NCBI RefSeq assembly: GCF_024700885.2
Contig: NZ_CP117016.1
Direction: 5' to 3' (one strand)
Length of the DNA stretch: 64,000 nt
DNA from: Escherichia coli
GTDB taxonomy: Bacteria; Pseudomonadota; Gammaproteobacteria; Enterobacterales; Enterobacteriaceae
Shown: positions 54,203 through 59,135 of the stretch, in pieces
How the letters are laid out: each line of letters starts with the position of its first letter
Numbering within the stretch: the first letter of the stretch is position 1
Translations under genes and position numbers: made by a program
The notes under the pieces: generated by a model
What the model was told of the DNA's origin: nothing
What the model saw: only the letters and a program-made list of their open reading frames with translations
Databases searched by the model: none

Positions 54203-55345
54203 TTGTCATGTAAAACAGAAACTGTCTACTACTATCTGACAGAAGCACTTTTAAATATATTCGAAAACAAAAAGCAGAACCTTGCCTTTATGCTTTTTTT
54301 ATCACTTTCTTTTGTGGGGATTATAATAACAGATTCATTGATATATAGTGTGTCATTAAAAGCTGAAAATGAGCTGCAAGTTTATGGTGACAAAGTTATG
54401 CATGTAAAACTCAACCAACCTAAAACCACTGAAAAAATAATGAGGATTTTTGAGACCATCAGCAATGATATCTCATTTTCAAAACAGAGTTTTTTTTATG
54501 TTGGAAGCAGTCCGTTTTCAGGTGACTCATTACCTGTTACTGGGATCGATGAATTAGGTTTAGGTATGTCAAACATAAAGTTTTTAGATGATAAATTCTA
54601 TGGTAATGTTGCTATTGTTAATGATATAGGAATATTTGGAAAAAGCAAGCAGGTATTCATCAATGGTATACCATTTAAAATTATCGGTGTTATTTATACA
54701 TCAAATACAGACTTTCTTGATAGTCTTGGACTGAGCAGTAATTTATATAATGAGCAGATTTATGTCCCACTAAAAACAATGTTTAGACTCAAAATGAGCA
54801 ACGAAATCGACTCGTTCAAATTGCTATTAAACAAAAACATAACATTCGAGAGTATAAACGAAGTGAGAGAAATACTGTATAACAATAAGATAAGGGACTT
54901 TAATATTATAACATCATTGAATGCAAAAGAAACTGTTGAACGAGTTTTGAAACGTTTTTCGTTATTGACTAACTCCGTATATATCATACTAACATTTTCT
55001 GCTGTCGTAACATGCTTTATGCTGTCAAAACGTAACTTTTATTCACGAAGCACTGAAATTGCATTAAAGATAATACATGGAGTGAAGCAGGGAGAAATTA
55101 TTTTAATGGTCCTAACAGAGTCATTTATTATACTATTTATTTGTTTGGTTTTATCCATTTCCTCGGGTTATACTGCAATGTATGTTATTACGAAGATACT
55201 GGATGTAGATATAAGCATAAGAATGACAATGATCACTATATCTTTGAGCACTATATTGATGGCTTTCATAATATCTAACGTTATATTTGGTAAATTGTTT
55301 TTCAATATGAACCCTGTAAATGTTATTAAAGGTAGAATAGAGTGA
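54203..55345 (+). CDS. AatP-like ABC transporter permease (MacB/FtsX fold)
   Basis: 380 aa; N-terminal TM, large periplasmic domain, three C-terminal TMs; first gene of a very AT-rich five-gene operon. Confidence 0.7.
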   Translation: MSCKTETVYYYLTEALLNIFENKKQNLAFMLFLSLSFVGIIITDSLIYSVSLKAENELQVYGDKVMHVKLNQPKTTEKIMRIFETISNDISFSKQSFFYVGSSPFSGDSLPVTGIDELGLGMSNIKFLDDKFYGNVAIVNDIGIFGKSKQVFINGIPFKIIGVIYTSNTDFLDSLGLSSNLYNEQIYVPLKTMFRLKMSNEIDSFKLLLNKNITFESINEVREILYNNKIRDFNIITSLNAKETVERVLKRFSLLTNSVYIILTFSAVVTCFMLSKRNFYSRSTEIALKIIHGVKQGEIILMVLTESFIILFICLVLSISSGYTAMYVITKILDVDISIRMTMITISLSTILMAFIISNVIFGKLFFNMNPVNVIKGRIE

Positions 55346-56580
55346 AATACATATCACATGCTTTTGTTTTATTTACTGGTTTATTCTCATCGGCACAATC
55401 TTTTGCAACCAATTGTATTATTGATGCTGTTTTTCAAAAGAATGAAAAATGGAATTCATATTCCATTGACATAAAAGAATTAGAAAACAGCAGGCAGGCT
55501 AACATAAAAAGAATGTTGCCTAATATTAACATCGGTGTAGGCCAATACATACAAAATAATCAATGGCTTACAGATATTTCAGAGAGTAACTTACATTTGT
55601 CACTATCTTACGATTTTTTATCAGGTTTTGAGACAATAAAAGAAAATGACAGGTTAGATGTTGTTAAGCGTTTAAAATATATTGAATTGCTTTATGCTCG
55701 TAATGATTATATAATTAACCTGTTCTCGAAAATAGTTGATTACAAAGCAAAGAAATCACAAATCAAGTTAATGAGAGAACAGTATAAGAAACTAGAAAAA
55801 GAATATGAGTCGACAAAAGAACAGGCGTTTTTAGGAATTGTATCAACTTTAGATGTTGATATACGCTCTAACGTCTTGAATAGAATGAAACTCGATATTG
55901 AAACTCTGGAGGAAGAATTAAACATTTCGTTTAAAAAAATATTTGCAGAGTATCATATTCCAAAAGAGATGCTTTTAAATATCACCTACGATAAACTAAA
56001 AGCATGTAAAATATATGATTTCCAGTCATTATTAAAAGAAAACAATAAATGGAGATTACTCGCAAATACAATTGATTATGATATAAAAAAAATTTCTGAT
56101 TATCCATCCTTTTATTTATCACTGGGAATGATGCCTAAAAAAGGCGGAGCTTTAAAAGATTTTAGCTTTAAAGAAATGGATTATAATGCAAGTTTAGGAA
56201 TAACATTCCCTTTGATGAGAATATTTGACACATCAGAAAATCAAAAGACACAAGCGATGCATATATCTCAAATCCACAATGAGTATATTAGAGAGTCTAT
56301 TAAACTAGATATATTACATAAAGAAATCTTTACAAAGCTAACATTATTGAAAAAACGCATCCCCATTTTAGAAGATGAGTTGAATTTAAAAAAAAGAGAA
56401 GTTGAGTATATACATGAACGAATTAAGAGTAAACAAGATACTATTTTAAATTATTTATCATCTATAAATAGCTTATATGAAACAGAAACCACGATCCAAA
56501 GAGTCGAATATGATATTGAATATTATAGTCTATACCTTTATTTTCTTCGTCAGTGTGATACCTATAAAAGGCATGTGTAA
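55342..56580 (+). CDS. AatA-like outer-membrane channel (TolC-like)
   Basis: 412 aa with signal peptide (MKYISHAFVLFTGLFSSAQSFA); 4-nt overlap with upstream gene; coiled-coil-rich; size fits AatA. Confidence 0.6.
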   Translation: MKYISHAFVLFTGLFSSAQSFATNCIIDAVFQKNEKWNSYSIDIKELENSRQANIKRMLPNINIGVGQYIQNNQWLTDISESNLHLSLSYDFLSGFETIKENDRLDVVKRLKYIELLYARNDYIINLFSKIVDYKAKKSQIKLMREQYKKLEKEYESTKEQAFLGIVSTLDVDIRSNVLNRMKLDIETLEEELNISFKKIFAEYHIPKEMLLNITYDKLKACKIYDFQSLLKENNKWRLLANTIDYDIKKISDYPSFYLSLGMMPKKGGALKDFSFKEMDYNASLGITFPLMRIFDTSENQKTQAMHISQIHNEYIRESIKLDILHKEIFTKLTLLKKRIPILEDELNLKKREVEYIHERIKSKQDTILNYLSSINSLYETETTIQRVEYDIEYYSLYLYFLRQCDTYKRHV

Positions 56581-57301
56581 TGTTTATTATGGCGTGTTAC
56601 GTGGAAGCCAAATTGTAAAATACAAAAGTCCTTTTCCAGGCATTGTTAACTTATCTAATATATTTGAAGGTGATATTTTTAACTCTGAATGTACATTATT
56701 TTCTGTCCATAATCATGAATACATTTCTAAGAGAGACATTATAAATAAAAAGAAAGAAATGGAGACACGAAAGCTAACAGGTCTAAAAGATTCAAGAAAA
56801 CACTTAGCTGCTATGTTTGTAAAGGGCTTTATCTCAAAAAAAGATTTGCAGGAGATAGAGCAGGAAATTAATAATGTTGAATTATCAATTATGAGTTTAG
56901 ATATTGAATCAAAAAACATAGAATCTTTATTGAGATTATCATCACCATCGTTGTCTGCTCCCTTTATCATTAGAGACATATTTGTAACGGATGGACAGTA
57001 TGTTAATTCTGGCGATGATATTATATCTATAGAATTATTGAGTAATTTCTATATAGATATAACCATAGATCCTGTTGATATAAATGGTAATTTAAAAAAT
57101 AAAAGAATAAGATATCGTTCTTTAGTTGATTCATTCACTGGTTCTGCCACAATTTTTAAAACAAGTCGCGCATACAAACCAGATGAAGTTTCATCTGGTT
57201 TACGCTTGGTTACCTTATTAATTCATGGGAAGTGGGAAGAATTATCAAATAATTTAGATACTGCATTTGAGATTTTCATTGATGATAAAGATAAGAATTA
57301 A
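56510..57301 (+). CDS. AatB-like periplasmic adaptor (HlyD/membrane-fusion-like)
   Basis: N-terminal TM (ILNIIVYTFIFFVSVIPI) followed by coiled-coil and beta-rich segments; start chosen at the internal Met of ORF 56477..57301. Confidence 0.55.
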   Translation: MILNIIVYTFIFFVSVIPIKGMCNVYYGVLRGSQIVKYKSPFPGIVNLSNIFEGDIFNSECTLFSVHNHEYISKRDIINKKKEMETRKLTGLKDSRKHLAAMFVKGFISKKDLQEIEQEINNVELSIMSLDIESKNIESLLRLSSPSLSAPFIIRDIFVTDGQYVNSGDDIISIELLSNFYIDITIDPVDINGNLKNKRIRYRSLVDSFTGSATIFKTSRAYKPDEVSSGLRLVTLLIHGKWEELSNNLDTAFEIFIDDKDKN

Positions 57302-57911: not shown

Positions 57912-57923
57912 AATAATATTACG

Positions 57924-59135
57924 ATGAACTTTTTAATTATTTCTTTGTATTTACTTTGTTATTATTATGCATCACGGAAAAGTTGGTCATGCCTTTTTTT
58001 AATATCATTTCTGGAAGCTTTTTTTTTATGCATAAATATGTTTAATCAAAATATCAGTCTGATATCCGATAGTTTAGGTCTGTTTTTTATGCCAATATTA
58101 TTCGGTTATAACATTGTTGTTTTTACAACATTTGCTTTTCTAAATCGATATCTTTATTGGGGAGGGGGGGTACATGCTTTTTTATTGACTGCCATGTCAA
58201 CTCTTGGTTTAATAATACCATTAAACCCCTTAATTCTATTGTATAATGAGTTTTCAAGTTTTCTACCTGTGACTGATATACCTGCTTTAAATTTATTTAT
58301 TTTAAATTTGTTTCCCACCATCATTTTCAAATTCAACATTATATTTTATATCGCATTAGCATCAATTATCTCTTACATATTTTTTACGGAACGAACACCG
58401 GCAAGCATATATCATAAACCACTAAACATTGTGGTCGTACAGGTAGGCTTGTATTTAAGAAACAATGGTTTTAATAATAATATTTATAATGATTTAGAGG
58501 CTTACATTAAAGGTAAAAAAGTTGACTTAATAGTTTTTTCCGAAAATGTATTTTTCGGACATAAAAATGACTATATAAAAAAGAAAACAGATATCTTCAT
58601 CAATAATTTAAAAGATGGTAGATATAATTTTAAATATGGAATAGTTATGAATCTTTATGGCTATAATGATATCAACAATGTAGTTTCTGTATTTTGGCAT
58701 AAAAATTCATTTATCACCCACCAAAAGACAAAATTAATACCTTTTTTTGAAAAAAGATCAGTATTTAACTCATATGAACCATTGTCGTCATCTTTTTTAT
58801 ATTATAACAAAGAAAAAAAACAAAATATATTTAACATCAAGCAACATATAGTGGGTGTTCATATATGTTATGAGGCGCTATTCCCTGAGATCTTCATCCC
58901 AAAATATAATATTAGTCTTATTCAATCTGATTATTCACGACTGAATGGCGGTTATAATTATGATAATGTGCTTATCAATGGCAGTATTCTATCAAAATTT
59001 GCTGTCGCCCCAAACATTCCATTCATAAATGTCCAGAATTATGGAGGTACAGTTCTGATAAAGAATGACTGGACTATCGATATGGGCTTGTTTAATAAAT
59101 CCAAAACAGAAGCTTTTTTATATGTTCAACTGTAA
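57924..59135 (+). CDS. AatD-like membrane N-acyltransferase (Lnt / CN-hydrolase superfamily)
   Basis: 403 aa; N-terminal polytopic membrane domain; C-terminal nitrilase-superfamily catalytic triad candidates (LIVFSE, HQKTKLIPF, GVHICYEALFPE). Confidence 0.7.
   Translation: MNFLIISLYLLCYYYASRKSWSCLFLISFLEAFFLCINMFNQNISLISDSLGLFFMPILFGYNIVVFTTFAFLNRYLYWGGGVHAFLLTAMSTLGLIIPLNPLILLYNEFSSFLPVTDIPALNLFILNLFPTIIFKFNIIFYIALASIISYIFFTERTPASIYHKPLNIVVVQVGLYLRNNGFNNNIYNDLEAYIKGKKVDLIVFSENVFFGHKNDYIKKKTDIFINNLKDGRYNFKYGIVMNLYGYNDINNVVSVFWHKNSFITHQKTKLIPFFEKRSVFNSYEPLSSSFLYYNKEKKQNIFNIKQHIVGVHICYEALFPEIFIPKYNISLIQSDYSRLNGGYNYDNVLINGSILSKFAVAPNIPFINVQNYGGTVLIKNDWTIDMGLFNKSKTEAFLYVQL

Follow-up and report, generated by a model that had tools for sequence, protein, structure and literature searches.

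A stretch of 64,000 nucleotides from Escherichia coli (contig NZ_CP117016.1 of assembly GCF_024700885.2; hereafter the window) very probably contains, at 54203-59135, an intact aatPABCD operon of the dispersin branch, located on a chromosomal pathogenicity-type island together with the gene for its substrate, an operon for fimbriae resembling the aggregative adherence fimbriae (AAF) and an activator of the AggR/Rns type. The locus is real, has been identified correctly and is already known. On ROD 17 of strain NCTC 86 it was described as an Aat/dispersin homologue with an AAF-like operon beside it (Dunne et al., 2017; PMC5382810). The supplements of Icke et al. (2021; PMC7943197) list WP_021523949.1, WP_023356213.1, WP_021527210.1 and WP_021543690.1 as an Aat system, the last being its aap/cexE gene and corresponding to the product encoded at 51917 in the window; they also give a 403-amino-acid AatD, WP_024188913.1, and class NCTC86 among the strains with a separated cexE gene. 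These accessions are the ones assigned by the Prokaryotic Genome Annotation Pipeline (PGAP) in the near-identical genome of strain 300444. The Aat system as such, which joins a fatty acid to the small coat protein dispersin and brings it to the E. coli cell surface, its glycine N-acylation chemistry and its wide distribution were likewise established before.

The aatPABCD operon and its products

As read from the open reading frames (ORFs), the five aat genes are intact, co-oriented on the plus strand and packed into one unit (Table 1). aatP and aatA overlap by 4 nucleotides, aatA and aatB by 104 and, counted from the ATG at 57282, aatB and aatC by 20, while aatC and aatD are separated by 12 nucleotides. 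The GC content is 0.26-0.32 over the operon versus 0.47-0.57 in the flanking insertion sequence (IS) DNA. The very AT-rich, five-gene operon of the original prediction is retained, and the only coordinate corrected is the start of aatC. This gene probably begins with the ATG at 57282 rather than the TTG at 57267, because its alignments to AatC of EAEC (enteroaggregative E. coli) and of ETEC (enterotoxigenic E. coli) open at residue 6 of the mechanical ORF and PGAP uses the same start. For aatB and aatD, the current PGAP/RefSeq starts (56594 and 58038, respectively) are shorter, and the membrane segments are thereby lost. The long forms, starting at 56477 and 57924, appear to be better than the current calls because they match EAEC AatB and AatD from residue 1 and keep the N-terminal anchor or helices; a gene size of 825 nucleotides for aatB is also used in a supplement of PMC7943197. 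An overlap of about 100 nucleotides between aatA and aatB is conserved in the three lineages compared (104, 101 and 92 nucleotides), and the stretch of aatB that overlaps aatA encodes the membrane anchor of AatB.

The products were compared by BLASTP with the Aat proteins of EAEC 55989 (plasmid 55989p), of an ETEC ST-enterotoxin plasmid (strain 90-9281) and of ETEC H10407 (p948). In this order, the amino acid sequence identities are 58.6, 62.8 and 36% for AatP, 51.0, 52.2 and 28% for AatA, 58.2, 59.2 and 31% for AatB, 71.3, 72.1 and 50% for AatC, and 51.1, 57.7 and 34% for AatD. The alignments to the EAEC and 90-9281 proteins run essentially end to end, and gene order and overlaps are the same in the window, 55989p and the 90-9281 plasmid. 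That the component set is that of aatPABCD, as first proposed from the letters, is confirmed by these five full-length homologues in the same order.

Domain and motif matches agree with the roles given in Table 1. AatP matches Pfam FtsX (E 3.4e-7) and MacB_PCD, the MacB periplasmic-core domain (E 1.2e-3), and has four hydrophobic segments (residues 24-52, 252-276, 296-330 and 337-369) and a periplasmic domain of about 200 residues. AatA contains two Pfam OEP repeats and is labeled a TolC family protein by PGAP, and AatB matches TIGR01730 RND_mfp (E 1.3e-8) and has a transmembrane segment at residues 9-36. AatC possesses a Walker A motif (GPSGVGKS), a signature motif (LSGGE) and an H-loop (THD); its Walker B motif (ILLADE) was read by eye from the translation, the pattern scan having returned no match.

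In an alignment of 17 AatD homologues, which followed a first one with two others, E207, K268 and C315 of the window AatD are invariant and E276 is nearly invariant (at least 90%). These four residues are the counterparts of catalytic residues mutagenized in EAEC and H10407: E207, K268 and C316 are required for function in EAEC (PMC7478709), and E217, K278 (the mutant being written K276A), E286 and C325 in H10407 AatD (PMC7943197). An AlphaFold2 model of AatD built on the 17-sequence alignment (pLDDT 80.5, pTM 0.84) consists of six N-terminal helices followed by a nitrilase-type domain, where the model ends. Its 18 best Foldseek matches in the PDB are all Lnt (E 1.7e-10 to 3e-7, TM 0.54-0.60), and the next matches are soluble nitrilase-superfamily proteins. 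The NCBIfam hidden Markov model (HMM) for Lnt matches AatD with an E value of 7.5e-9. Catalytic residues, predicted fold and Lnt HMM together uphold the initial description of AatD as an Lnt-like, membrane-bound CN-hydrolase acyltransferase.

Predicted substrate, presumed activator and a proposed mechanism

The predicted substrate is a dispersin (Aap) homologue whose gene ends 1,938 bp before aatP. The annotated Aap proteins of 61 plasmids share 60-66% identity with its product; Aap of pHUSEC41-2 shares 63.8%, and both cysteines align. The predicted substrate contains one N-terminal hydrophobic segment, and the junction of the signal peptide also aligns: the window protein reads ...NVFA/GGGG (followed by WN) and pHUSEC41-2 Aap reads ...NAFA/GGSG, where the slash marks the cleavage site as deduced from this alignment together with the -3/-1 rule. 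Experiments have located acylation at the N-terminal glycine (PMC7943197). A disrupted second substrate gene was reported downstream by Dunne et al.; tblastn revealed no second aap-like sequence in the window. Because the substrate is only 30% identical to CexE of H10407 versus 64% to Aap, and the Aat proteins are 28-50% identical to those of H10407, which are of the CexE type, versus 51-71% to those of EAEC, we place the window system in the dispersin (Aap) branch and not in the CexE branch. The NCTC86 protein has been placed in the dispersin clade in a preprint (10.1101/375527).

The 265-residue AraC-family regulator encoded downstream of the operon is 37% identical to AggR and 38% identical to CfaD over about 95% of its length, and is presumed to activate the fimbrial, aap and aat units of the island. 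The DNA was scanned for the consensus WWWWWWWTATC with a -10 element 21-23 bp downstream (PMC6392122). About 135 bp of native AT-rich DNA before aatP aligns with the region upstream of EAEC aatP that holds the characterized AggR-dependent promoter, and has two candidate activator sites, TGATTAATATC and AATAATTTATC. The latter (54111-54121) is a perfect match to the consensus, and a -10-like TATATT (54142-54147) is found 20 bp downstream; the characterized aatP promoter of strain 042 has a like arrangement with a spacing of 21 bp (PMC6392122, Table 1). The candidate promoter of the aap homologue appears to lie 109 bp ahead of the start codon. Each of the three leading genes thus has a composite AggR-type motif at a distance of 81-109 bp upstream, where the background density is 0.58 per kb-strand, and the chance of finding all three by accident, estimated post hoc, is about 2e-4. 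A generic scan for sigma-70 promoters and terminators was uninformative, with fewer promoter-like sites than in shuffled controls.

The AraC-negative regulator (Aar/ANR) accompanies AggR in EAEC and CfaD in H10407. Searches with the EAEC and H10407 proteins found no homologue at 46600-64000 of the window; such a gene may be encoded in another part of the genome or be missing.

The comparisons show gene content, order and intactness, homology, catalytic residues, fold and chromosomal distribution. Acylation, export and regulation, as well as possible expression in the window strain, we infer by homology with the experiments on the EAEC and ETEC systems (PMC7943197; PMC7478709), and propose the following mechanism. 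The 115-residue precursor would be exported by Sec and cut by signal peptidase I after ...NVFA, which would expose Gly22 of the GGGG stretch. AatD, with E207, K268 and C315 and the supporting E276, would then take a single acyl chain off a phospholipid and attach it to the alpha-amino group of Gly22. The AatP permease and the AatC ATPase would form an ABC machine of the MacB/LolCDE type that pulls the mono-acylated protein out of the inner membrane, and AatB and AatA would hand it on to the cell surface. Transcription would probably depend on the AraC-type regulator of the island, acting through the TATC-type sites before aatP, aap and the gene for the fimbrial chaperone.

Distribution, decay and the origin of the pairing

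By megablast the operon has no match among the PLSDB plasmids. Of 5,426 complete E. coli genomes, 39 have it on the chromosome at 99.5% identity or more, NCTC86 among them, and the carriers come from human stool, pets, chicken, cheese, water and soil in varied countries; positions 23096-64000 of the window are 99.95% identical to strain 300444 from Mozambique. A search with AatD of 5.8 billion protein clusters returned no relative at 58%-100% identity. Judged by these comparisons, the window Aat system is a distinct, nearly clonal lineage. In 38 of the 39 genomes the distance from aap to aat is 2,451-5,187 bp and never shorter; the scars left by IS elements between the two are therefore fixed, and more IS insertions have come on top of them. 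The assemblies of NCTC 86 disagree with one another: CP019778 has aap about 5.2 kb upstream of aat, LT601384 has the two about 38 kb apart and in a different relative order, and in LR217818 aap is present and the aat operon was not found. The disagreement could reflect divergence of stocks or differences in assembly around IS copies.

Several observations weigh against reading the locus as an intact Aat system with its own substrate and activator. Full-text searches by accession and keyword found no functional study of this lineage. Searches of the PDB with AatD (phmmer and hmmsearch, with the single sequence and with 3- and 17-sequence profiles) found no Lnt, and the Pfam CN_hydrolase match is marginal (E 0.0098). 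With such weak domain signals from sequence alone, the link between AatD and Lnt depends on the catalytic residues, the fold predicted by AlphaFold2 and the NCBIfam HMM. AatD of C. rodentium did not complement an EAEC aatD mutant (PMC7478709); function across branches is therefore not guaranteed. The regulator, being just 37% identical to AggR, may prefer different sites, and the spacing of 20 bp between the candidate aatP site and its -10 element compares with 21-23 bp in characterized promoters. Twelve of the 51 complete genomes that carry the aap region are without the aat operon. In the aat-less genome examined, FDAARGOS_1276 (9840-12846, compared with 52395-63400 of the window), the regulator is gone as well: directly after the IS481 fragment next to aap comes an IS3 element, and after it the IS5/EspI remnants, which in the window are found past the regulator. 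In RIVM_C040348 the aat genes are split by frameshifts. Given the IS-rich island, the loss of aat in 12 of the 51 genomes and the frameshifted copy, the Aat system may be dispensable or silent in some hosts.

These losses also bear on the window itself, where the genes might be open and the system no longer expressed or needed on an IS-eroded island. Such a silent or decaying remnant would suit the IS or intron fragments that flank every island module, the IS66 fragment that ends about 20 bp before the first candidate site (54090) and about 135 bp before the aatP start, the IS3 at the junction in FDAARGOS_1276, the lack of an ANR/Aar partner gene in the window and the judgment of Dunne et al. 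(PMC5382810) that the neighboring fimbrial operon is non-functional in NCTC 86. We nevertheless consider it unlikely, since the five aat genes, the substrate gene and the regulator are all full length, the catalytic and ATPase motifs are intact, the operon has stayed nearly identical across 39 genomes from varied hosts and countries, and the native DNA upstream of aatP retains a promoter-like motif. Far less probable still, to the point of being negligible, is that the operon encodes housekeeping-type paralogues of LolCDE/Lnt or a drug or peptide efflux pump like MacAB-TolC that has nothing to do with the small protein. The Aat machinery is distantly related to MacB, LolD, TolC and Lnt, and the best NCBIfam matches of AatC are generic ABC ATPases. 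However, AatD scores 35.2 bits against the Lnt model TIGR00546 (NCBI cutoff 132.9), AatC scores 143.8 bits against the LolD model TIGR02211 (cutoff 307.75), the score against the MacB model NF007826 is 133 bits (cutoff 966), and no operon product matches a LolC or LolE model of NCBIfam. The same products are 51-72% identical to Aat proteins over their full length and keep their gene order, and the locus is AT-rich and accessory, given its presence in 39 of 5,426 genomes. By these scores and identities a housekeeping or efflux role appears effectively refuted, and the question raised with the original prediction, whether the products are closer to LolCDE/Lnt, is answered in the negative.

The intact dispersin-branch system could also be of composite origin. 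The original prediction placed the dispersin-like gene about 2 kb from the operon with IS481- and IS66-derived DNA in between, which the measured gap and its two fragments bear out, and suggested that IS-mediated events had assembled the substrate-transporter pair. In favor of a joining of substrate gene and transporter from separate sources by IS-mediated recombination, the truncated IS481- and IS66-family fragments lie exactly between aap and aatP, the internal break of the IS66 fragment requires at least one deletion or recombination event there, further IS insertions alter the spacing among strains and aap and aat are far apart in one NCTC 86 assembly. Against it, the substrate, transporter, regulator and pilin have all diverged deeply from their counterparts on EAEC pAA plasmids (64% identity for aap, 51-71% for aatPABCD, 37% for the regulator and about 30% for the pilin), as expected for joint divergence rather than recent recombination, and the lack of intermediate relatives in the cluster search is as expected of one old lineage carrying the full set. 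Among 826 Aat systems, the layout met most often has the aap/cexE gene more than 1 kb from aatPABCD (PMC7943197). The same scars occur in 38 of the 39 genomes and so are old and fixed. With both IS fragments taken out, about 264 bp would separate aap from aatP, much as 272 bp separate cexE from aatP in H10407; insertion of IS elements between genes that were already adjacent explains this no less well than assembly does. Taken together, the data favor an old linkage into which IS elements inserted and which was eroded, and assembly by IS events is not supported and seems improbable to us. The history is not provable because the IS66 fragment is truncated at an internal break, and, as none of the 39 carrier genomes has an IS-free aap-aat interval and intermediate relatives are lacking, the ancestral layout is not recoverable. 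The possibility that the IS481 fragment beside aap and the intact IS481 element downstream of aatD are copies of one sequence was rejected, as the two share no DNA similarity.

Within the dispersin branch, the window lineage is the most diverged member among those compared, and the strains in which its Aat system occurs, along with a regulator and fimbria of its own, are considered commensal. The lineage could therefore be of use in asking if the dispersin/Aat module acts as a general colonization factor rather than marking virulence, and if strains of this kind are under-counted by probe-based EAEC surveys. We tentatively raise the possibility, which at present seems less likely than not, that the island is a complete and functional regulon of the EAEC type in commensal or environmental E. 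coli, with a new AAF-like fimbria, dispersin, Aat and a distant AggR-like activator and without an ANR partner in the window, that aap ancestrally lay directly upstream of aatP as in ETEC before IS481/IS66 insertion, and that standard EAEC diagnostics miss it. If this is true, the CVD432/aatA probe and aggR PCR would probably miss such strains, because the locus has no megablast-level DNA similarity to pAA plasmids.

The surrounding island and comparison with known systems

Table 1. Features of the aat region of the window (positions of the whole stretch; candidate sites are from the motif scan)
Feature	Position	Strand	Details
Candidate AggR-type promoter of fimbrial chaperone	46826-46836	+	GCTTTTTTATC; TATTAT 22 bp downstream
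Fimbrial periplasmic chaperone	46941-47690	+	NCBIfam SafB-like, E 1.4e-71; PGAP fimbria/pilus periplasmic chaperone
Fimbrial outer-membrane usher	47709-50315	+	868 aa; NCBIfam usher model, E 4.8e-263
AfaD/SafD-like minor subunit	50331-50765	+	PGAP AfaD family invasin; NCBIfam SafD-like, E 3e-14
AAF-like major pilin candidate	50876-51391	+	28-31% identical to Agg5A, AafA and AggA (tblastn)
Candidate AggR/Rns-type promoter of aap homologue	51797-51835	+	GTTTTATTATC at 51797-51807; TAGTAT 22 bp downstream
Dispersin (Aap) homologue	51917-52264	+	115 aa; predicted substrate
IS481-family transposase fragment	~52395-53305	-	N-terminal part missing (PGAP); megablast query 131-1041
IS66-family tnpC internal fragment	~53305-54068	+	Both ends missing (PGAP); megablast query 1041/1109-1798/1804
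Candidate activator sites upstream of aatP	54090-54100; 54111-54121	+	TGATTAATATC; AATAATTTATC
aatP	54203-55345	+	380 aa; MacB/LolC-type ABC permease
aatA	55342-56580	+	412 aa; TolC-like outer-membrane channel
aatB	56477-57301	+	274 aa; periplasmic adaptor with N-terminal membrane anchor
aatC	57282-57911 (ATG) or 57267-57911 (TTG)	+	209 or 214 aa; ABC ATPase
aatD	57924-59135	+	403 aa; membrane-bound C-N hydrolase, Lnt-like N-acyltransferase
Group II intron remnant	59195-59647	-	Maturase C-terminal fragment and domain V-VI RNA motif; PGAP
Intact IS481-family element	59661-60686	+	28-bp terminal inverted repeats, 59661-59688 and 60659-60686
AraC-family regulator, AggR/Rns(CfaD) type	62541-63338	+	265 aa; PGAP AraC family transcriptional regulator

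The chaperone gene opens an AAF/Saf-like chaperone-usher operon that belongs to the same island. Between strains, the pilin gene is the most variable gene of the island. When a 4-kb region was compared between the window and CFSAN061761, most nucleotide differences were found in 50900-51400; aap has a single residue changed, and identity over the aat operon is about 100%. Antigenic diversification or allele exchange affecting only the pilin is suggested by this pattern.

The island begins after clpA with an integrase gene and also contains iro remnants, an EspI fragment and IS elements. The region at about 25900-46500 includes a gene for a 629-residue enterotoxin, a unit of a malX-type phosphotransferase system and MalY, frameshifted remnants of iroN, iroE and iroC, and a deoxyribose-type sugar operon (ribokinase, permease, epimerase and DeoR regulator). 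Mosaics of this kind are typical of pathogenicity islands in E. coli. On its downstream side the aat operon is bounded by the group II intron remnant, in which Rfam Intron_gpII matches 59235-59314 on the minus strand with 53.8 bits. A second Rfam match to group II intron domains V-VI (60751-60830, plus strand) lies in the opposite orientation, so that the pair flanks the intact IS481 element, whose transposase ORF (59704-60675) encodes 323 residues. A weak Rfam tRNA match at 39683-39750 (30.7 bits, threshold 29) may represent part of a tRNA gene that stayed behind at a junction inside the island; ARAGORN reports no tRNA anywhere in the window. The Rfam small RNA families Ysr251 (193 bits) and STnc100 (136 bits) are matched strongly in the island, at 8403-8596 (minus strand) and 40169-40383 (plus strand), respectively.

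Among known systems, the Lnt, LolCDE and MacAB-TolC machines differ in that the Aat genes are not housekeeping genes and their products score far below the cutoffs of those families. Lnt shares its fold and catalytic triad with AatD, LolC and MacB share topology and type of ATPase with AatP and AatC, and TolC is similar to AatA. Lnt is, however, about 110 residues longer than AatD, whose model stops in the nitrilase domain and is without the C-terminal helix. In the Aat system the acyl chain is accepted by the glycine at the N-terminus of a protein cut by signal peptidase I, rather than by a diacylglyceryl-cysteine (PMC7943197). ETEC H10407 has the same component set and inferred mechanism as the window, and its CexE also has an N-terminal GGG after the signal peptide. 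In contrast to the window, cexE lies directly upstream of aatP in H10407, and aatD is parted from aatPABC by mobile elements.

The closest relative found is the Aat system of the ETEC ST plasmids (strains 90-9281 and TW14425), which has the same gene order and the highest identities to the window proteins; it is plasmid-borne and 60-79% identical to EAEC Aat. The EAEC pAA plasmids (042, 55989 and O104:H4) carry the same five genes with the same order and overlaps, the catalytic residues of AatD match, an AraC-type activator and AAF-type fimbriae accompany Aat, and the substrate gene lies apart from the aat operon, all as in the window. The pAA system is nevertheless plasmid-borne, whereas that of the window is chromosomal and only 51-71% identical to it in protein sequence, and the AAF subunits are only about 30% identical to the window pilin. 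Of the three systems, the window system is the outlier, those of EAEC and ETEC 90-9281 being closer to each other.

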